Shown: positions 50,251 through 64,000, numbered from the stretch's first letter. The stretch: 64,000 bases of DNA from an uncultured bacterium (GCA_964388155.1 CAYLYH010000006.1:11350-75349); one strand, 5' to 3'. Numbers and translations: made by a program. The notes: generated from the letters alone by a model not told the origin.

Positions 50251-50598
50251 ATGATATTACAAACAAACCTAGACCATATTGCGTCTGAAGAAGAGTATGA
50301 TAAAATGCTAGAAGAAAATGAAAACGTCATGATTTGCTGTGGCAGAATGGGGCCGATGTGTCTACCTGTCTATGCTGCGATGGAAACGCTGAAGCCGGAT
50401 TATAAACACATAAAATTTTACGATATGGCATTCGATGCCCCTTTCGCCCACGTCATTCGCAATCATCCCGATTGTTCAGGTTTTATGGGACTGCCGTTTA
50501 CGATGTATTATAAAAATGGGAAAGTTGTGAAAGCAACAAGTAGTATCCAAAATACATCTCAAGTTAAGACGATTCTTGACGAAAACTTTACAGACTAA
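50251..50598 (+). CDS. thioredoxin-fold protein with atypical CCGRMGPMC motif
   Basis: 115 aa, AAGGAG 7 nt upstream. Thioredoxin-like beta-alpha-beta layout with cis-Pro-like LPFTMYYKNGK. Confidence 0.6.
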   Translation: MILQTNLDHIASEEEYDKMLEENENVMICCGRMGPMCLPVYAAMETLKPDYKHIKFYDMAFDAPFAHVIRNHPDCSGFMGLPFTMYYKNGKVVKATSSIQNTSQVKTILDENFTD

Positions 50599-51036
50599 AT
50601 GAGGAAAATCATGAATGTAAAATGGTTGATCATTTCTTTTTCATTTGGGTTGATGTTCACTGCGTGCTCCAAGGATGAGGTACAAAACAAAACAACCAAA
50701 AACCCTGTGTCAAAGATGGTAAGTTCATCCTCAGATAAGACTGTTAATAAATCAATTGTTGAGAAACAAAAACTCTTGTTTTTTATTAACCCGAATGGAC
50801 GTCCGTGTCAGATACAAAATACAATTTTGGAAAAAATAAGATCGCAAATCAATGAAAAGGCTGACGTTATTTACGTTAAAACAACGGATCCGTCTGCACG
50901 GGATTTGTTTTACAAGTACGGTATTCGGTCGTTGCCTAGTATAATCATTGCAGATTCTAAAGGTGGTCCGATAAAACGTTTCCCTCCCGGAATCCAGAAT
51001 GAAGACACTATCTTAAACGTTTTGAAAGCATTTTGA
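50599..51036 (+). CDS. thioredoxin-fold lipoprotein (single-Cys GRPC site)
   Basis: Lipobox MFTAC. LLFFINPNGRPCQ at the position of WCxxC, and SLPSIII...G cis-Pro region. Confidence 0.6.
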   Translation: MRKIMNVKWLIISFSFGLMFTACSKDEVQNKTTKNPVSKMVSSSSDKTVNKSIVEKQKLLFFINPNGRPCQIQNTILEKIRSQINEKADVIYVKTTDPSARDLFYKYGIRSLPSIIIADSKGGPIKRFPPGIQNEDTILNVLKAF

Positions 51037-51683
51037 TGGAGTTTTCACTTTCGGCATTATTCCTTGCGATGGGAGCGGGATTGATGAGCGTTGCTTCACC
51101 TTGTGTGCTACCGGTTGTCCCGATTATTATAACAGGGACGGAACAGGATCATAAGCTACGCCCTTTATTAATTGTCATGGGTTTATCTCTCACATTCATT
51201 TTGATGGGGGTCATCAGTTCATTATTCGGTTCGATGATTGCCGGAAAAATGTTGTTAGTGGAAAAAGCCGCCGGTATTTTTGTTATTTTGTTCGGAATAT
51301 TGATATTGGGAGATATCAACATCTTTAAACGTATTACTATTTTCAATAAGATCGGTAACCCTTCCGGCGGAAAGTGGTCAGGATTTGTTCTTGGGCTTAC
51401 TCTAGGGCTAGTTTGGATTCCGTGTGTTGGGCCGATGTTGTCAGGTGTACTTACGATGGTGGCGACACAAGGTCAAGTATTACCCGGAGTTATCCTGTTA
51501 ATGTTTTATTCTGCAGGGTTTGCAATTCCGATGCTGATAGTTGGTTATTCTTCACAGGCAGTCAGAAATAAGATTCGAGTGGTTCAGAAATATCCAATTG
51601 CCGTGCGAATTTTCAGCGGTGGAATATTGGTTGCGTTCGGAATATATATTCTTGTGAACGGTATTTTGGGTTTTGGTTGGTAG
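51033..51683 (+). CDS. ccdA: cytochrome c biogenesis / thiol-disulfide transporter CcdA (DsbD membrane domain)
   Basis: 216 aa, 6 TM helices, conserved Cys in TM1 (SPCVLPVVP) and TM4 (WIPCVGPML). Confidence 0.88.
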   Translation: MMEFSLSALFLAMGAGLMSVASPCVLPVVPIIITGTEQDHKLRPLLIVMGLSLTFILMGVISSLFGSMIAGKMLLVEKAAGIFVILFGILILGDINIFKRITIFNKIGNPSGGKWSGFVLGLTLGLVWIPCVGPMLSGVLTMVATQGQVLPGVILLMFYSAGFAIPMLIVGYSSQAVRNKIRVVQKYPIAVRIFSGGILVAFGIYILVNGILGFGW

Positions 51684-53491: not shown

Positions 53492-53574
53492 TGATTAAAA
53501 TTTAACCCGTTGTGCATATTAAATGATTTTATACAAATTGACCTGAGTATGTCTCAATATTTATAGTTTTGGAC

Positions 53575-53978
53575 TGAGAAGTGGACCCCTAAAACTGTCT
53601 GCCCGTGCAGACGGGGACAGGGTATTAAGTTGTAATTTCTGCATGAACAAATAGCAAAGGAAGATCAGAAATGAGCAAGAAACGCAGAAATCATTCAGCA
53701 GCATTTAAAGCGAAAGTAGCTTTAGTTGCGATAAAAGGTGATAAAACGATGAGTGAACTATGTCACAATACATCTTAAATCAAGTGCAGATACAGAAATG
53801 CCTGCCGGCCGCAGGCGGGGAAGAAACAACTTTTGGAAGGTTCTGAAGATGTATTTGGTGTATCAAAGAAAAAGGAAAAGAACCATGAGGTGGAGGTAAA
53901 AGATCTCCATGCAAAGATTGGTCAGTTGACCATGGAACGTGATTTTTTAGCCAAAGGTTACTTTATTTCTCTAATTTA
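53575..53978 (+). mobile_element. truncated IS3-family element (left end + decayed orfA only)
   Basis: TGAGAAGTGGACCCC... resembles an IS3-type left terminal repeat. The orfA remnant follows. No orfB/DDE region or matching right end was found. Confidence 0.6.
53671..53978 (+). pseudogene. IS3-family transposase OrfA (HTH) remnant, interrupted and truncated
   Basis: MSKKRRNHSAAFKAKVALVAIKGDKTMSEL... then a TAA at 53776, then KKQLLEGSEDVFG...DLHAKIGQLTMERDFLAKG back in the same frame. A GC-rich segment of about 22 nt disrupts the HPNQISQW region. Confidence 0.75.
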
Positions 53979-53979
53979 A

Positions 53980-54023
53980 TAGGGAATTATAACTGTCGTC
54001 AGTAGGGAATTCAACTTGTCGCT
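53980..54023 (+). repeat. two imperfect 21-nt direct repeats, 23-nt period (tagggaattataactgtcgtc / tagggaattcaacttgtcgct)
   Basis: Read directly, immediately after the IS3 truncation point. Confidence 0.7.
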
Positions 54024-54387
54024 GATCATTCGTGAAGACAATACTTTGCTTGTAGTTCGTAGCTCGTGACGGGTGGGGACACCCTTAACGTCGGGAAAAC
54101 GAACATTTTTAAGAATTACCGAAAAATAGAATAATTATTTATGGTTGTACCTTATTGTATTACAGGTATATACAGGATATCAATATGCTTCATTTAAAGA
54201 GATGCAAAAAGTTCATATTTTCGAATGCACGCACCGCAACGCTAAAGCCTCGATTTATGGATCAGTTGTTTTGCAAACCCATAAGATTTTATATTTTTTA
54301 AGAACATATATTACTTTACCCATACCGAATAAAGTATTGTAAATTTTCGTCTTAATTTCAATACAAAAAAGTAAATGTGAAACCGAT

Positions 54388-57613: not shown

Positions 57614-58918
57614 ATGCGTTACCCGATATTTACATTAGTTGTCCTTCTTTTCGCGGGTTTGGAACTTGGTAACCCGGTTTCTGCGGCAGAAAATACCTAT
57701 GTGTATATCCTCAATTTCGATAACATTCAGGATGAAACTGCTACAGAATGGTTGGAGATTGGATTTGCCGATAAACTTCGTGAGAAATTATCATCTCAAA
57801 ATGGATTACATATTCGTTCACGGCAGGATCTTGAGAAAATTATGGATGATCGTCAACGTCTGCTGTCTCAGCCACGAGGATCGAATAATGTCCTCTTATT
57901 AGGAAAGTTTAACCGTTCCCTCGATGAGATTAGTGTGAGTGTCCAGCTTATCAATATTGTGACATGGAAAGAACTGGATTCTAAGAAAGTTCTTGGGAAA
58001 TATTCTGAAATTTCATTATTAATGGACACTCTATATAACGCCATATTTACGATGTTAAAACCATTATTACCGGAAGACAAACCGTTGAAGCGTCCCTATC
58101 CTGATATGAATGTGTCAACAACAAAAGCTCTTTTGCCAACCGTGCATAAGCAAAGTACAGATGTTGCCGGAAATATTGATTCTGCTATTGAAGATTTAGA
58201 AATATCCATGGATATTGTCATCGGAGCACGTGAGGAAGCATCTGAAATGGATATGGATGTGGAAGGTGAATGGACGTTGGATCTCAATGTAGATAATGAG
58301 GAAGAAGAGAATCCTGAAAATGACGTGAATACAGATATACTGGTGGGAGTAATTGAGACACTCACGAAAAACCCATATCGTGTTAAGATGGAAAAACCAC
58401 GATTTGAATATGATACAGAAAATGACGATAACATGAAAGTCATATTTCCTGTTACATATGCTTTAAAGGAAACGATACTTAAAGATATGCTGTATTCGAT
58501 GCCTTACACCGGATTAAAACAAGATGGAACATTAACAATATTTTCCTTCAATAAAGAAAAATTTAATTTTCCACAGGCAACGGTAGATAAACTAAAATAC
58601 GGGACATATCGCAAAGTCCCGGTTATACAGTTTGTGGATAAAAATAGCGAACCGGTTGTGGTTATTGCAGATACACCTGATTATGAGTTGCATTCCATCG
58701 GTAGTGACCGGACGATTTTTGTACCAACACATCGGTTTTCACCATTAGTCGATATAACCGTCGGCGGCTGGGAAATACACATTGCAATGGAGACTGTATC
58801 AATTTCTGTCGATTATACGTTCATCATAGATGTTAAAGACGTAAATCGTCTCGAGGGTGTTAAACTTAAATTTATTCCTGCGGAAGAACTTCCTTTGTAT
58901 CTAAACCGTCTTCTTTAA
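57614..58918 (+). CDS. secreted hypothetical protein (N-terminal FlgO/TolB-N/LpoB-like module, acidic linker, unknown C-domain)
   Basis: Signal peptide ...GNPVSA|AE. YVYILNFDN...EWLEIGFADKLREKLSS...IRSRQDLEKIM resembles CsgG/LpoB-like scaffold modules. Confidence 0.4.
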   Translation: MRYPIFTLVVLLFAGLELGNPVSAAENTYVYILNFDNIQDETATEWLEIGFADKLREKLSSQNGLHIRSRQDLEKIMDDRQRLLSQPRGSNNVLLLGKFNRSLDEISVSVQLINIVTWKELDSKKVLGKYSEISLLMDTLYNAIFTMLKPLLPEDKPLKRPYPDMNVSTTKALLPTVHKQSTDVAGNIDSAIEDLEISMDIVIGAREEASEMDMDVEGEWTLDLNVDNEEEENPENDVNTDILVGVIETLTKNPYRVKMEKPRFEYDTENDDNMKVIFPVTYALKETILKDMLYSMPYTGLKQDGTLTIFSFNKEKFNFPQATVDKLKYGTYRKVPVIQFVDKNSEPVVVIADTPDYELHSIGSDRTIFVPTHRFSPLVDITVGGWEIHIAMETVSISVDYTFIIDVKDVNRLEGVKLKFIPAEELPLYLNRLL

Positions 58919-58940
58919 TCTCAAGGTTGTTTAATTGACA

Positions 58941-59507
58941 ATGAAGTATGTTTTTTTTATCTTTATATATTTTTCTATTTTGTTTGCAGAAGAGTCAGAG
59001 AAAGTTAAACAAACTGAATTCCCAAATGTAAGAATACACACACTCAAAGGTCAAAGTATCTCACCGCATGATATATTAGATAAGAAATTGACATTAGTTA
59101 ATTTTTGGGCAACATGGTGTGTTCCATGTCTGAAAGAAATGAAATATCTAAATCAATTTCATGAAAAATATAGTGAAGAGGGGTTTCATGTGGTTGGTAT
59201 TTCCATAGATGATACACGCACCTCCCGCCGTGTACCGTCTGTTGTAAGATCAAAACATATTACCTATCCAATTTATCTTGATACAGAACAGGCTTTGTTC
59301 CAGCGTTTCCAATGTTCTGCGATGCCATTTTCGGTGTTAGTGTCTTCTGAGGGAATTGTTCTTTGGGAACATACGGGATATATTTCCGGTGATGAGAAAG
59401 AAATGGAACGTGTCATTCTCTCACATTTGAGGGAGAATGATATCCATGAAAATGCTGAAGCCGTTTCCGGAAAAGATGAAGATTTACTTGAGCAGAAAAG
59501 CGAATAA
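58941..59507 (+). CDS. TlpA-family periplasmic thiol-disulfide oxidoreductase
   Basis: Signal peptide, NFWATWCVPC CxxC motif, AhpC/TSA-like fold, 188 aa. Confidence 0.85.
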   Translation: MKYVFFIFIYFSILFAEESEKVKQTEFPNVRIHTLKGQSISPHDILDKKLTLVNFWATWCVPCLKEMKYLNQFHEKYSEEGFHVVGISIDDTRTSRRVPSVVRSKHITYPIYLDTEQALFQRFQCSAMPFSVLVSSEGIVLWEHTGYISGDEKEMERVILSHLRENDIHENAEAVSGKDEDLLEQKSE

Positions 59508-61173
59508 AATATTCCTCATATTCGCGTTAATCTCGTTACAGATTTGTACGGGATATTCTGCGATGAATTTTAGTGTATCCTCCCGTTATGGACAGGGAAG
59601 TCAATCAGGACTTAATTACCGATATAACGAACATTATTTTCAACTCAATACCTCGTATAACCGGTGGGATTTAACAGCGGAACTACAATTTACAGATCCG
59701 CCAGAATTTGGTTTTTCATCCGCCGGTTTTCGACAACTGACTCTATCATATTTTGGGGAGAACTTTACCACAGAAATAGGCCATATTAAAGCAGTGTTTG
59801 GAAATGGACTATCGCTGAATATCTTTGAACAAAAAGAAATCGATTTTGACAACAGACCGGTTGGGATGAAAATCCGTGGCAACCTTACGGATAATGTGGA
59901 AATCCTTGTTCTCGCCGGAAGGAAAAATGAGTACCGTTTTTATTCTCCGAATTCTGACCTGCGTGAACCGGATGGACAATCAGCGTTTGATATCGGGGGG
60001 ACTGAATTGCGGCTTCTTTCAAAAGATGGTTTTTGGTCATTGAATCCTTATGTGGTTCTTTCGCGATTTAAGTCTGACATTATTCAGATAAGCATGGATC
60101 CTGTAACGTTCGTGCCGGTTGAGAATACACGTGTTCAATACACTTCAATGTTAAACCCAGGACTCGCAACATCCTTTTTTGGAACCTCCTTTGATGTGAT
60201 GATTGAATTCAGTATGATGGAGAAACGATTTGATTATCCATTGGTAAGACTATCGGTTACACAAAATGCAATTAACGTGACGGAAGCGGTAACACGTCAA
60301 AAAGGAAATGCTTTCTATTTGCAATGGAATTGGTATCCGGATTGGCTGACGGTTTTTGCGGAGTACAAGCGGTATCATTGGGGGATAGAGGCTCAGCAGG
60401 ATAGAACAAACTTGCATCGACAAGCCTCACGGGTGTTACCGTTTCAAATGGGACCTACAGGCATTAGGCAGCATGATATCAGTCTGTTGGCAAACAGAAC
60501 TCACCCAGTGAATTATAGTGATGAAGTTGGAATAAATATCGATATAAAATATTCGGTCGGTAATTGGATAGGCACGATAAATATTGCAAAACTAAGTCAA
60601 ACCACTTTTTGGAATAAAAATGTATCCGATAATCTATTTTATCCAAGTTCTCTGCCGAAATATCTCCCGTTTTCGGAAAAATATTTTGAGCTGGAGTATT
60701 CAGGAAATAGGCTGACTAATCGTTTTGTGGCAGCCTATACCGATTACACAGAATCTCTCTCCACCGAACGGGCAGAAAATTTACAGCATATAACGATTAC
60801 TCCTTTATACGCATCGTTTAGGTTGGGTGAGTTTGTTTTGAGTCATATTTTTACTTGGCAGCAATCACAAAAAATATCGTTGACGTTGACGGGTGAAGAA
60901 ATCCATCAAGAATTACCATATTATTCACAGCAGTGGGTGAATTCAGTTGATTGGAAAGGGCAATGGTCAGTTTCTGCAATCTTCGATGTGAGTGATGAAT
61001 CCGGTGAAACAGAAAATTGGTTGAGCGGAGAAATCGTCTACAAACCCTCACCAAGATACTGGCTTCGTGGATCTTACGGAGCAGAAAAAGGCGGTGTACG
61101 GTGTACAAGTGGCGTTTGCAGAATTATTAGTCCGTTTGAAGGAGCAAGGCTCTCAATGGAGGTTAGGTTCTGA
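59476..61173 (+). CDS. outer-membrane beta-barrel protein, DUF6029-like
   Basis: Signal peptide MKIYLSRKANKIFLIFALISLQICTGYSA, alternating beta-strand pattern, C-terminal ...LSMEVRF (terminal Phe). VFGNGLSLNIFEQKEIDFDN resembles the DUF6029 signature as I recall it. Start uncertain (59437/59476). Confidence 0.6.
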   Translation: MKIYLSRKANKIFLIFALISLQICTGYSAMNFSVSSRYGQGSQSGLNYRYNEHYFQLNTSYNRWDLTAELQFTDPPEFGFSSAGFRQLTLSYFGENFTTEIGHIKAVFGNGLSLNIFEQKEIDFDNRPVGMKIRGNLTDNVEILVLAGRKNEYRFYSPNSDLREPDGQSAFDIGGTELRLLSKDGFWSLNPYVVLSRFKSDIIQISMDPVTFVPVENTRVQYTSMLNPGLATSFFGTSFDVMIEFSMMEKRFDYPLVRLSVTQNAINVTEAVTRQKGNAFYLQWNWYPDWLTVFAEYKRYHWGIEAQQDRTNLHRQASRVLPFQMGPTGIRQHDISLLANRTHPVNYSDEVGINIDIKYSVGNWIGTINIAKLSQTTFWNKNVSDNLFYPSSLPKYLPFSEKYFELEYSGNRLTNRFVAAYTDYTESLSTERAENLQHITITPLYASFRLGEFVLSHIFTWQQSQKISLTLTGEEIHQELPYYSQQWVNSVDWKGQWSVSAIFDVSDESGETENWLSGEIVYKPSPRYWLRGSYGAEKGGVRCTSGVCRIISPFEGARLSMEVRF

Positions 61174-62483
61174 TGGATGTTCTGCAAAAAAGGAATAGAG
61201 TGATAGGGTGGAGGCTAAGGGAGTTTGTAGGTTTTATGCTATTATTGGTGTTCACAGGATGTGAGTTTTTCAACAATCCGTATGAGGGGCCATTCAATGA
61301 GTATGTTGAAACCATTTATCTTGAACCGAATGATACGCTAACCATAGATATTCCTTCAATTCTAAACGGCAAGAATAATATAAATATAGAAATATCAAAT
61401 ACCGGAAATAGTTCTATTGTAGATGTGATTGAATTAATTCCTGAAGGACTAACAGTCATTGGATTGACAGAAGGAGAAAGTACAATAATCGCCGAATGCA
61501 ATGATGGTTCGGAACGTGATAGAATATTTTTCAATTTTCACGTTATAGAGGGGAAACCCCTGTTCCTCAAAATGGGTGAAGTAATCGAGTTAAATCCCCA
61601 AGAAATATTTGAGATGCCCGGCGTTTTTCCTGATTCCGTCAAATTGGAAGACATAACAGAAGGATATCATGAATTTCCTGACGACTTTGAATATATTTAT
61701 AATGAGTCCATAAAAATGACCGGTTCATTACCAGACCAAGTGAGTGGTATCCTCAAAGGATATTATGGATATGAAATTATTGAAGTACGGTTGCATATTG
61801 TTACTGAAATCCGCCATATTGTTTTAACAGAATTATTTACGAGTACAACTTGCACAAACTGCCCGGAAGCGAATGAATATATTGATGAAATTATTTCTGA
61901 TTATGATATTTCATTGGCGGTAATACGTTACCATGTCGGGATCCCTGTCGCCGGTGACCCGATGTATGCTTACAATATGGAAGACAGCGATGTCAGATTG
62001 AATTATTATCCGATGCTGTTTCCGGTTGCACCTTTTCTGTCCATCGACGGAAGTGATCCGTTTGTTGGAGTTGGCCAAATTACCAATTCCACAGCAACGT
62101 TAATTGAACGCCTTCAAACTCCGGCTGATATTTATCTTGGGCATGAGGTAGAGGAGGCAGAATCCGCTCTCGATGTTTCCGTGCATGTTTCTGGAATGCA
62201 AGTTGGTGATGTGTACACACTTCGAGCCGTATTGATTGAAAACGAGGTCTTATATGAGGGATCCAACGGCGAAACTCACCATCGGCAAGTAATGCGGGAT
62301 TTGAATGCTATGTCCATTTCAGGTGATGATATCTTTGAACTAACTCTTATGAAACCTGATTGGTATACCGAAGAAACATTTAGTGTCGTTACGTTTCTGC
62401 AAAATGAGGAGACACGTGAAGTTATACAAGCGAATATTCATCACAAGTTATTGTTAGAAGTGGATTATTCGTCTGAAAAATAA
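61173..62483 (+). CDS. lipoprotein with Big_2-like Ig domain and Omp28-like thioredoxin-fold domain (C-T-N-C)
   Basis: Lipobox VFTGC. The Ig-like segment is IVDVIELIPEGLTVIGLTEGESTIIAE. ELFTSTTCTNCPEA is typical of Omp28-related proteins. Confidence 0.6.
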   Translation: MDVLQKRNRVIGWRLREFVGFMLLLVFTGCEFFNNPYEGPFNEYVETIYLEPNDTLTIDIPSILNGKNNINIEISNTGNSSIVDVIELIPEGLTVIGLTEGESTIIAECNDGSERDRIFFNFHVIEGKPLFLKMGEVIELNPQEIFEMPGVFPDSVKLEDITEGYHEFPDDFEYIYNESIKMTGSLPDQVSGILKGYYGYEIIEVRLHIVTEIRHIVLTELFTSTTCTNCPEANEYIDEIISDYDISLAVIRYHVGIPVAGDPMYAYNMEDSDVRLNYYPMLFPVAPFLSIDGSDPFVGVGQITNSTATLIERLQTPADIYLGHEVEEAESALDVSVHVSGMQVGDVYTLRAVLIENEVLYEGSNGETHHRQVMRDLNAMSISGDDIFELTLMKPDWYTEETFSVVTFLQNEETREVIQANIHHKLLLEVDYSSEK

Positions 62484-62594
62484 TATGGATGTGATCCGGT
62501 TAACATTAATTTATTCCATACTTTGAAAAGATTTATTGCACACGTAATTTCGTTGCAATATTTAGTCCAATAAACGCATTAGAGGAGTCTTCTT

Positions 62595-64000
62595 ATGAAA
62601 TCACTACGCACATTTTTATTCCTTAATATATTGTTTTCTTTTGCACTTGCAACCCAAATGATGGTTGTGGGTGAAGTATTTACGGAATCCTGGTGAAGCT
62701 ACTGTCCACAAGCCCGTGCCGGCTTGTCACAATTAAACGATAATTATGATATCATCCCACTTATTTGGGAAGGTGATGGACATACAAGTCCAAATTATTC
62801 TACAAGATATAATTGGTATTCTGTTCAAGCACTACCTACCGCTGTTTTTGGTGGAGAAGTCCCGGATGTTGGCGGCGGGGATACTTACCCAAGATATGTA
62901 AACCATTATAACACGGTTTCAGCGATACAAAGTCCACTGGAGATTGATGTGTCTTTTGAAACATCTATTGGTGGTAGTGTAGTCCTTTCTGCAGACGTAG
63001 AAGTAACAAATACTGTGACTACCGACGATAATTTTGTGCAGCTAATTCTGACCTATAATTATTCTGCTTCGTACTTTTGCACTGTTGTGAGATATGAAGA
63101 AGAGACTTTTAATTTAACAGATGTTGGGCAAACTGCACAATTTTCGCGTTCATTTACTATAGATGATGACTGGGATTTGGCAAAATTAACCGGTGTCGTA
63201 ATCGTGCAAACCAATGAAGGAAGTATGACAGGGGGGCAATATCCCATTCATACTCGTGCAGTTTTACAGGCAGGTAAGGCTTTTTTACCACAAGATGCCG
63301 TTCTTACCGGCATGGTAACGGATGCATTTACGAATAACCCAATCGCAGGTGCAACCATTACAGCCGGGTCGTTTGAAACAACGACAACGTTTAACGGGAC
63401 CTATACATTAAACACAATTCCAACAACATACGACGTCGTATGCAGTTCTCCTAATTATGAACCCACAACAGAAAACATTACGACTATTTCAGATGAAATT
63501 ATCAATCTTGATTTAACGCTGTCAGAGATGCTGCTTCCTCCATATGTTGTTTATGCAGAGGTCGATGGGGGATCTGTCTCCTTAACATGGCCTTACCCGG
63601 AGATACCAACAGCAAGCTTTGTTGTAGAAATACGAACAGATGACTATCCGGCGGAGACATCCTGGGGTGTTACCGATCACAGCGGAAACCAAATTGCAGG
63701 AATTAACGCAGGAGATTTATCCAATGCTAGTACCGTTTATACTTGGGAAATGGAATTGGATATGGGGTCATATACATTTACAATCTATGATTCCTACGGA
63801 GACGGTATTTGCTGCAACTATGGCCAAGGATATTATTCGCTTGTTTTAAACGGAACGGAAATAGCAAACGGTGGAAACTTTGGTTCATCTGAAAGTGTAA
63901 ATTTCAATACCGAAGATGCACGAACCCGCGATGTACTTGGATATAACATTTGGGAAGGGGACAACGAAGAGCCAATCAACGGTGAAGATATTGTTACTGA
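62595..64000 (+). CDS. candidate selenoprotein: exported Omp28-like thioredoxin-fold protein with U-S-Y-C (TGA 62694-62696 read as Sec), carboxypeptidase-regulatory-like and Cys-rich beta domains; 3' end beyond window
   Basis: Hand translation gives ATG 62595 (AGAGGAG 7 nt upstream), signal peptide MKSLRTFLFLNILFSFALA, then VVGEVFTESW-TGA-SYCPQARAGLSQLNDNYD. The frame is otherwise open to 64000. It aligns with the paralogue ELFTSTTCTNCPEANEYIDEIISDYD. Absent from the ORF track because of the TGA and the missing stop. Confidence 0.65.
62703..62731 (+). promoter_or_regulatory. candidate bacterial SECIS hairpin
   Basis: tgt-cc-ACAAGCC-cgugcc-GGCUUGU-c-aca. 7-bp upper stem (62708-62714 / 62721-62727), 6-nt loop containing GU, 3-bp lower stem. 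The core stem starts 12 nt after the TGA. Confidence 0.55.

Follow-up and report, generated by a model that had tools for sequence, protein, structure and literature searches.

A widespread gene module of a TlpA-like reductase, a DUF6029 outer-membrane barrel and exported thioredoxin-fold proteins, with a possible role in reduction at the cell surface

To our knowledge, the extracytoplasmic thiol-disulfide pathways known so far end in the periplasm. The typical active site of their TlpA- and ResA-type reductases is W-C-x-P-C (CVPC in TlpA, CEPC in ResA), and CcdA is, from general knowledge of its family, a plausible electron donor to TlpA-type proteins. Meanwhile, bacteria of the Fibrobacterota-Chlorobiota-Bacteroidota (FCB) group export thioredoxin-fold proteins to the cell surface, of which HBP35 is the one studied case. 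HBP35 of Porphyromonas gingivalis is a surface protein that depends on type IX secretion (T9SS) and, in recombinant form, reduces insulin via its two cysteines (PMC2907840, PMC3120885); it also binds hemin, is required for growth under hemin limitation and is encoded by a transcript reported as 1.1-kb monocistronic (PMC2907840). Here, a cluster of six genes (g1 to g6) is described that begins within a 64,000-nucleotide (nt) stretch of DNA from an uncultured bacterium (GCA_964388155.1 CAYLYH010000006.1:11350-75349, hereafter the window) and that was compared with related loci from genome and metagenome collections, numbered L001 onwards.

The core of this module has three parts: a TlpA/ResA-type reductase (g2), a plug-less DUF6029 barrel (g3) and an exported protein with a thioredoxin fold of the Omp28/HBP35 type (g4). 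The window lineage extends the core by g1, by g5, which is a selenocysteine (Sec, U) paralogue of g4, and by g6, which has a C-x4-C of its own. Among the pieces, the TlpA-type reductases, thioredoxin-motif cargo of the T9SS (HBP35) and the NF045500 family were already known; the module of reductase, barrel and exported thioredoxin-fold protein is widespread and undescribed. The explanation favoured here, which is quite possible though short of probable, is that the module supplies reducing power to the cell surface and so forms a reducing pathway that would end outside the outer membrane.

Conservation of the TlpA, DUF6029 and Omp28-like gene neighbourhood had been put forward as a check in a preliminary description of the window, with its absence as grounds for refutation, and the order proved essentially invariant. 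A scan of GTDB with an alignment of nine g4 sequences returned 16 loci, from Marinimicrobia only, in which the trio was always present (16/16) with a g4-type gene after the barrel. A DUF6029 alignment run against metagenomes retrieved 67 loci, with identities as low as 21%, and the pooled DUF6029 loci collapsed to 62 clusters at 90% barrel identity. A TlpA-like gene precedes the barrel gene in all 59 clusters with upstream sequence and usually overlaps it; 57 of these genes fall inside the strict interval, and of the other two one lies 700 nt upstream (L068) and one overlaps the barrel gene (L097). Downstream of the barrel, an exported thioredoxin-fold protein with CxxC or UxxC is encoded in every cluster for which sequence is available (40/40). 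This partner is Omp28-like in 31 of the 40, either as a lipoprotein or with a T9SS tail, and takes the form of one to three selenoproteins in nine, mostly with W-U-G-P-C or W-U-x-x-C and a T9SS tail; CxxC is present in 45/45 Omp28-like partners. Dozens of independent lineages share this gene order, which puts the arrangement far beyond what chance would produce. By name, one barrel cluster belongs to Bacteroidota (a metagenome-assembled genome, MAG) and another to Marinimicrobia, and the sample names of many loci refer to oxygen-poor or sulfidic waters.

The surroundings of the trio differ between lineages. In close relatives the order gltX-glnS-g1-g2-g3-g4-g5-g6 is retained and the outer flanks vary; L009 and L016 have a longer g1 followed by TlpA-like, DUF6029 and g4-type genes, and the L009 lineage is without g5 and g6. 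Past the g4-type gene of this lineage (L009:10883-11540) there is no long open reading frame (ORF), and one frame reads like a translated tRNA gene. The trio has only unrelated genes around it in L064 and L070; in the latter, the partner exceeds the Pfam thresholds for both Omp28 and Por_Secre_tail. Of the five-gene cluster initially presented as a unit, the trio of g2-g3-g4 type is therefore what is conserved; g1 and g5 are lineage-specific, and g6, which was not part of that cluster as the window ends before it, also belongs.

In the L010 clade, the genes run in the order extracytoplasmic function (ECF) sigma factor, anti-sigma factor, glutaredoxin, Cpn10, (CoA-disulfide reductase), DUF1858-like, OsmC, rhodanese and DUF6132, followed by genes for a T9SS protein of ~240 amino acids (aa), a TlpA-like protein, DUF6029, a g4-type protein and DUF2231. 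These neighbours appear to constitute a thiol/sulfur-stress context, which favours a reducing function of the module and, together with the waters sampled, could speculatively hint at substrates of the disulfide, persulfide or polysulfide type. The block upstream (L010:2563-6814), also found directly upstream of the module in L011, L017-L027, L031 and L032, encodes an 83-aa putative anti-sigma factor, a YruB-type glutaredoxin, often a CoA-disulfide reductase (479.6 bits, cut-off 458) and a redox-disulfide DUF1858 domain, and looks like a thiol/persulfide-stress regulon.

Four types of partner follow the barrel: an Omp28-like lipoprotein, an Omp28-like protein with a T9SS tail, a W-U-G-P-C protein with a T9SS tail, and a large protein whose C-terminal domain is a U-G-Y-C redoxin. 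Since the partner has been swapped several times among unrelated thioredoxin-fold types, and repeatedly changed to a Sec form, while the TlpA-like gene and the barrel stay, it is shared redox chemistry that seems to be selected and not a particular binding protein. T9SS sorting domains are found on g5, g6 and most partners, and most partners are for that reason placed outside the outer membrane; six T9SS-tailed selenoproteins could be read directly in the loci. Every component except g1 has a conserved Cys/Sec pair.

Several selenoprotein partners have features of their own. Tandem T9SS-tailed selenoproteins after DUF6029 occur in L028 (5366-8295), L076, L078, L080, L081 (up to three), L085 and L088, with a thioredoxin-like site ...A(S/T)W-U-G-P-C; they matched no NCBIfam selenoprotein family, some are fused to or lie beside Cys-rich 'CGxCxGxN..C' repeat proteins, and in L028 hairpins with a GGA loop follow the UGAs. 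In two high-GC lineages (L089:9380-11863 and L099:8521-13545) the barrel is followed by proteins of ~820-840 aa with a C-terminal redoxin domain (W-U-GYC, S-U-GYC or G-U-GSC), sites that recall the NCBIfam 'TUGYCR motif thioredoxin fold (seleno)protein'.

All five ORFs of the initial cluster were found on the + strand where they had been placed (Table 1), and the component proteins were examined in turn. The description of g2 as a TlpA-type periplasmic CxxC reductase is borne out in the sense of a TlpA-like protein. It scores well above the Pfam cut-off for Redoxin (80.6 bits, cut-off 26.6), matches AhpC-TSA (65.2 bits) and Thioredoxin_8 (49.1 bits), and its active site, NFWATW-CVPC, is a W-C-x-x-C of the CxPC type; C-x-P-C is present in 73 of 74 distinct TlpA-like sequences adjoining DUF6029 genes. 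The NCBIfam scores for ResA (86 bits, cut-off 170) and TlpA (63.9 bits, cut-off 230) are both below the equivalog/subfamily cut-offs, and g2 is therefore TlpA-like and not an orthologue.

A CcdA gene (51033-51683; Pfam DsbD_TM, 57.9 bits) lies ~7 kb upstream of the module, and the operon to which it belongs (50251-51683) had been proposed as the electron source for g2. Synteny gives no such link in any other lineage: in a BLAST search of 99 loci, the window's own contig alone was positive and CcdA was found within ~8 kb of the module nowhere else. The operon consists of three genes. The first encodes a 115-aa protein with the motif CCGRMGPMC and no Pfam match; the second encodes a 145-aa lipoprotein-like thioredoxin fold with the site NPNGRPC and a weak match to NCBIfam TsoC ('NEPxGxxU motif selenoprotein', E 0.011), of which it looks like a Cys version; and the third encodes CcdA itself, whose top NCBIfam match is the DsbD part of selenoprotein TsoB. 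A kinship with the Tso system, of which the operon would be a Cys-type form, is possible.

The identification of g3 as a DUF6029-like outer-membrane beta-barrel that ends in Phe and overlaps the reductase gene was confirmed by Pfam, by the structural model and by the ORF. Residues 51-565 match DUF6029 (PF19494) with 67.7 bits against a gathering score of 27, and the C-terminus reads ...MEVRF. An AlphaFold2 model built with 42 homologues (mean predicted local distance difference test, pLDDT, 80; predicted template modelling score, pTM, 0.75) has ~24 transmembrane strands as assigned by DSSP, no plug domain, and long loops after the odd-numbered strands, consistent with periplasmic N- and C-termini. 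With ~24 strands and no plug, the barrel plausibly has a lumen wide enough for a small domain to enter or dock. A DUF6029 sequence profile gave no match in the PDB, and Foldseek found only generic large barrels there (TM-score ~0.44, 8-10% identity), with the TonB-dependent transporters OprC and BtuB and the PapC usher as top matches; the 22-strand transporter barrels nearest g3 include 8bmx, a Bacteroides B12 transporter with a surface lipoprotein.

The most conserved feature of the barrel is a cysteine pair: GG-x2-C-x4-C stands ~20 residues before the C-terminus in all 53 DUF6029 barrels with a complete C-terminus, and in most of them these are the sole cysteines. In the model, the pair flanks a small hairpin in the last external loop, where it could serve as a relay or as a structural disulfide. 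The one mention of DUF6029 found in the literature proposes a polysaccharide porin, Wzi-like barrels near outer-membrane polysaccharide export (OPX) genes being similar to DUF6029 by HHpred (PMC9603273). That role was set aside here, as polysaccharide-export genes occur in none of the loci.

The preliminary description of g4 as a lipoprotein with a CxxC-bearing Omp28-like domain and a start that overlaps the barrel stop holds, while the Ig domain also claimed for it is weakly supported, by the beta-rich N-terminal part of a poor model, and has no Pfam family. Its signal peptide ends in a lipobox (LLLVFTG-C30) whose Cys shows 90% conservation or more across 31 family members, and g4 is accordingly predicted to be a bacterial lipoprotein; its redox motif is C-T-N-C. 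Its scores against Omp28 are sub-threshold (Pfam PF11551, 26.3 bits, cut-off 34.9; NCBIfam NF033782, 34.2, cut-off 150), as are its matches to DUF1223 models. A word-indexed search found five relatives of g4 and one of the g5 N-terminal domain; exhaustive HMMER searching with a g4-domain profile enlarged the family to 6448 proteins at E<=1e-3, of which 2211 reach E<=1e-10. CxxC is present in 142 of the 149 best representatives of this family, often as CGPC or CPPC, many members share the g5 layout of an N-terminal domain and a C-terminal T9SS tail, and some exceed the Pfam Omp28 gathering score.

Profile comparison places the two proteins in a wider superfamily. A 30-sequence family profile matched 2axo (Atu2684/DUF1223, E 7e-7), 2r2c (Omp28, E 7e-5) and, over both sub-domains, 5y1a (P. 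gingivalis HBP35, E 8e-7) in the PDB. Homology extends over the whole domain, including its E-x-F-T-x3-C-x2-C start, so that by profiles g4 and g5 fall within the Omp28/DUF1223/HBP35 superfamily; because both miss every curated cut-off, they are best regarded as divergent branches of the Omp28 family. The last four components had been presented as lacking an experimentally defined function, which does not hold for the Omp28-like family, given the thioredoxin activity and hemin binding of HBP35 (PMC2907840). Besides CxxC, the family conserves (in g4 numbering) E220, Y253-H254, D262-P263, R275, Y279, P287, E356, N365-G366, R375, Q410 and Q419, and g5 retains just part of this polar set. A reading of g4 as a Sco-like copper chaperone, reduced by TlpA and marked by CxxC together with conserved His and Met, was rejected: H370 and M264 are conserved in 52% and 42% of sequences, copper genes are not linked, and the CGPC/CPPC motifs and the substitution by Sec point to redox catalysis.

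The reading of g5 as a second Omp28-like protein with UxxC also holds. An in-frame TGA gives W-U-S-Y-C and is followed by 434 open codons to the window end. The complete gene can be read on L001 (11423-14038) as a signal peptide, an Omp28/HBP35-type domain of ~230 aa with U-S-Y-C, CarboxypepD_reg (48 bits), further beta domains and a T9SS sorting domain (Por_Secre_tail, 46.3 bits, cut-off 27), the last of which implies export to the surface or the medium. Its N-terminal domain aligns with the Omp28-like family with a probability of 99.6% (hhalign, E 5e-24, 212 columns), and Sec aligns with the first Cys of the g4 CTNC, a position that is also Cys in the family. The TGA is kept in L001 and in the orthologues L005/L006, L007 and L033, with N-terminal domain identity to g5 of ~66% in L005/L006 and L007, and so are its flanks, VVGEVF(T/S)(E/Q)(S/T)W-U-(S/T)YCP. 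Gene callers break g5 at this codon into a 33-aa ORF and an ORF of 749-828 aa; the window has no other credible Sec site.

A candidate selenocysteine insertion sequence (SECIS) was also found, as a 7-bp hairpin; the 40 nt after the UGA have a minimum free energy of -10.8 kcal/mol (z = -2.4, 1.9% of shuffles as good), and the orthologues have a hairpin at the equivalent position. As those of L005 and L007 are no better than shuffles, the SECIS evidence is suggestive only. Across the window no Rfam family was matched, around the TGA not even at a permissive threshold, and ARAGORN found no tRNA genes in the window, hence no tRNA-Sec there.

Other parts of g5 drew attention in their own right. When residues 24-99 (62664-62890) are taken alone, their best match is to class I plant glutaredoxins (CGYC, E ~1e-3), and this match spans the cis-Pro 'LPT' and a 'GG..GGGD' aligned with the glutathione-binding region, so that g5 might use a glutathione-like co-substrate. 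The middle of the protein (63640-63900, residues ~350-440) holds a domain with the motif YDSYGDGICCNYGQGYY and no Pfam match; on L001, the YDSYGDGICCNYGQGYY domain is followed by two tandem repeats with DWNM(V/I)..P...PG.GYW(L/V)R, likewise without a Pfam match.

On L001, g6 begins 25 nt after g5 and encodes a PKD domain and a T9SS tail; Por_Secre_tail scores 21.2 bits (below the cut-off of 27) and FlgD_ig scores 29 bits over the same C-terminal stretch. With a signal peptide and a C-terminal domain each, g5 and g6 are predicted to be T9SS type A cargo. The unannotated N-terminal domain of g6 (~110 aa) is homologous to the T9SS proteins of ~240 aa encoded upstream of TlpA in other Marinimicrobia (L010:6786-7502 and equivalents), and W-x4-C-x4-C-x-P is invariant in this family; the C-x4-C spacing with an internal Gly resembles that of the barrel.

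The first gene, g1, encodes a protein of 434 aa with a signal-like sequence at its N-terminus and no cysteine. The LpoB/FlgO-like label first given to it is unsupported: it has no Pfam, NCBIfam or PDB-sequence match, and a six-sequence profile found nothing relevant in the PDB, CsgG-type proteins included. In the window clade, the L009/L016 clade and the class with W-U-G-P-C selenoproteins, a g1 homologue immediately precedes the TlpA-like gene; L010-type and Bacteroidota-type loci have none, and g1 appears to be an accessory, lineage-specific addition to the module.

Table 1. Coordinates of the module genes and associated features (positions in the window unless a locus is named)
Feature	Position	Strand	Description
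g1	57614..58918	+	ORF, 434 aa; secreted or periplasmic, cysteine-free, no family matched
g2	58941..59507	+	TlpA/ResA-type reductase; W-C-V-P-C codons 59118-59129; Redoxin match
g3	59476..61173	+	DUF6029 barrel; alternative start 59437; C-x4-C codons 61102-61104 and 61117-61119
g4	61173..62483	+	Predicted lipoprotein; lipobox Cys codon 61260-61262; C-T-N-C 61851-61862
g5	62595..64000, cut by window end	+	T9SS-secreted selenoprotein; full length 871 aa
Sec codon TGA	62694..62696	+	Residue 34 of g5; conserved in orthologues, Cys in family
Candidate SECIS hairpin ACAAGCC-CGUGCC-GGCUUGU	62708..62727	+	Starts 11 nt past TGA
g6	L001:14064-15083, past window end	co-directional with g5	339 aa, T9SS cargo

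From g1 to g5, successive genes are separated by 22 nt, a 32-nt overlap (g2/g3), a 1-nt overlap, in which the g4 ATG and the g3 stop share one base, and 111 nt. Homologues of g3 carry the name Candidatus Marinimicrobia, and the window is assigned on sequence grounds to a marine Marinimicrobia (SAR406) contig. L001, a 125-kb marine metagenome contig from the Joint Genome Institute (JGI), is 99.99% identical to the window over 12.8 kb, and the remainder of the cluster beyond the window end can therefore be read there; downstream of g6 it has convergent NUDIX and helicase genes. Upstream of the module, ~900 nt between a greA-like gene and gltX (53492-54387) contain no ORF of at least 60 aa except one of 65 aa; gene callers put just a 48-aa ORF there, and tRNA and Rfam scans of it were empty.

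The proposal that the module delivers reducing power to the surface starts from these genes and motifs, their near-universal linkage, their export signals, the kinship with HBP35 and the conserved TGA. An inner-membrane protein of the CcdA/DsbD type would pass electrons from the cytoplasm on to g2, as in the TlpA/ResA/CcmG pathways, and g2 would in turn maintain the barrel and its partner proteins with their Cys pairs in the reduced state. The role of the barrel would be either to keep the partner at the surface or to make it accessible, and the surface CxxC/UxxC proteins could then act on bonds of the disulfide type, reducing or rearranging them in substrates on the surface or outside the cell, with disulfides, and possibly persulfides or polysulfides, as possible targets. 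Passage of reducing power across the outer membrane, or its use on surface substrates, had been envisaged from the outset; linkage, export signals and conserved Cys/Sec pairs agree with it, and the passage itself is something that we infer.

Several points weigh against this proposal. Its electron-transfer steps, that is, who reduces whom and the transfer across the membrane, are inferred, as are the topology of g4 and the substrate. CcdA has no synteny with the module, no Sec machinery was seen in the window, and the SECIS-like hairpin is weak in two g5 orthologues. Co-transcription is deduced from spacing, because promoter and terminator scans of the window gave counts at chance level with a model that does not cover FCB promoters. 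The AlphaFold2 model of g4 (six homologues) has a pLDDT of 51 overall, with a beta-rich N-terminal part locally at 60-77, and is unusable for a fold search or for judging topology and the accessibility of the redox site. The barrel Cys pair is predicted to be external, in a hairpin modelled with low confidence (pLDDT <50 at residues 545-550), and may simply form a structural disulfide. Furthermore, the polar residues conserved in the Omp28-like domain hint at recognition of a specific ligand or partner and not at general disulfide reduction, and an uptake role is possible because HBP35 also binds hemin.

The alternative that survives best, although it is rather unlikely, is that the module serves biogenesis or anchoring only. 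The barrel would be a docking or export platform for the partner, in analogy to LptD-LptE, SusC-SusD or PorP/SprF with their cognate cargo, and the TlpA-like protein would act in the periplasm alone, where it would maintain or correct the cysteine pairs in barrel and cargo ahead of assembly or export, no electrons crossing afterwards. The g2/g3 and g3/g4 overlaps suggest translational coupling and a fixed stoichiometry, and in the model the barrel Cys pair flanks a tight hairpin, as structural disulfides typically do. That a barrel can depend on periplasmic oxidoreductases for its disulfides is known from LptD, and T9SS cargo folds in the periplasm prior to export, where its Sec/Cys site would therefore be exposed to oxidation of the DsbA type. 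What such a role leaves unexplained is that the partner is always a redox-active thioredoxin fold, so often upgraded to Sec; moreover, the T9SS-tailed partners have an export route and an anchor of their own, and a private barrel should be unneeded.

Uptake is a less likely alternative. Here, an Omp28/HBP35-like surface lid would capture a ligand (haem, a metal, a species of selenium or sulfur, or a nutrient containing a disulfide), the barrel would be the import channel and the TlpA-like protein would process or release the ligand. The hemin binding of HBP35 and its requirement in hemin-limited growth (PMC2907840) favour this, as does the conserved polar constellation of the Omp28-like domain, which suggests a specific small ligand, and the rhodanese, DUF6132, OsmC and CoA-disulfide reductase neighbours in one clade fit the handling of sulfur species. 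The nearest solved folds of the barrel are TonB-dependent transporters, including BtuB with a surface lipoprotein, but that similarity is generic, the barrel is without plug or TonB box, and its linked genes include none for TonB/ExbBD or a periplasmic binding protein; the W-U-G-P-C partners, in turn, resemble plain thioredoxins and not binding proteins. Finally, adjacency without common function, a matter of lineage genome order as for gltX-glnS upstream, would account for the closest relatives, which are collinear over the whole block including gltX-glnS and whose conservation says little at that range, but is effectively excluded by the retention of the trio in three Marinimicrobia contexts, in distant loci with barrels 21-25% identical and in a Bacteroidota MAG with all flanks different.

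If reducing power is indeed supplied to the surface, this may affect how the abundant marine Marinimicrobia and other FCB bacteria handle oxidants, sulfur species or disulfide-rich substrates in oxygen-poor waters, and the module would provide target genes for deletion or assay once a carrier is in culture. A bolder form of the proposal, which is doubtful, makes DUF6029 the outer-membrane counterpart of DsbD, its C-x4-C shuttling reducing equivalents from the TlpA-like protein, by way of the wide and plug-less barrel, to the surface (seleno)proteins; such a thiol/selenol electron relay through the outer membrane would, if true, be without bacterial precedent and would explain the recycling of surface thioredoxins such as HBP35. 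Even on a modest reading, the data offer a functional annotation for DUF6029 and a shared context for three uncharacterised families, namely DUF6029, the Omp28/DUF1223-like proteins and a TlpA-like subfamily. The survey also reveals an invariant Cys pair in an outer-membrane barrel and the repeated use of Sec (U-x-x-C, often W-U-G-P-C) in T9SS cargo. A literature search found no publication that ties Omp28 to thioredoxin chemistry, TlpA or DUF6029 or links DUF6029 with TlpA or Omp28, and none on T9SS-secreted selenoproteins or on the cysteine pair of the barrel.

Set against known systems, the reductase is closest to the CcdA/DsbD to TlpA/ResA/CcmG pathways of cytochrome c and CuA maturation, with which it shares a secreted Redoxin-family thioredoxin fold, W-C-x-P-C and, in the window, a CcdA gene 7 kb upstream. 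It differs in scoring far under the NCBIfam TlpA/ResA cut-offs, in having as invariant neighbours a barrel and exported thioredoxin-fold proteins and not cytochrome-maturation or Sco/CoxB genes, and in that CcdA is not syntenic with the module in other lineages. DsbD is a functional analogue only: the likeness is one of concept, a membrane protein with one essential Cys pair that relays between thioredoxin-fold partners, whereas DsbD and CcdA are alpha-helical inner-membrane proteins and g3 is an outer-membrane beta-barrel without sequence or fold relation to them, and we know of no thiol relay across an outer membrane.

The pairing of a gene for a large barrel with a lipoprotein gene to which it seems to be coupled in translation recalls LptD-LptE, SusC-SusD and BtuB-BtuG, and the fold of g3 is nearest to 22-strand transporter barrels, 8bmx with its surface lipoprotein among them; in contrast to those systems, g3 has no plug, TonB box or lipopolysaccharide-transport context, and a complex with g4 would be a putative one. 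As a member of Pfam DUF6029, g3 is also akin to the Wzi-like/DUF6029 barrels (PMC9603273), but its model has ~24 strands against 18 in Wzi, and redox proteins, not polysaccharide-export genes, flank the DUF6029 loci examined.

For the exported partners, the known relatives are closer. The domain of Omp28 (PF11551, NF033782, 2R2C) is shared by g4 and g5, and a Sec-containing Omp28 relative is already annotated as NF045500, 'Omp28-related selenoprotein' (NCBIfam), against which g5 scores 38.8, far from the cut-off of 200. As in other redox-active selenoproteins, Sec of g5 takes the place of the N-terminal, nucleophilic Cys of CxxC. Unlike HBP35, with its monocistronic transcript (PMC2907840), g5 has Sec, is 871 aa long with extra beta domains and lies in an operon-like cluster with TlpA and DUF6029, and its single sequence matches 5y1a weakly (E 0.32). 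HBP35 (5Y1A) nevertheless has in common with g4 and g5 the domain superfamily and with g5 the T9SS C-terminal sorting domain, and the active sites of the two are strikingly similar, EVFTAEW-C-GYCP in HBP35 and EVFTESW-U-SYCP in g5.

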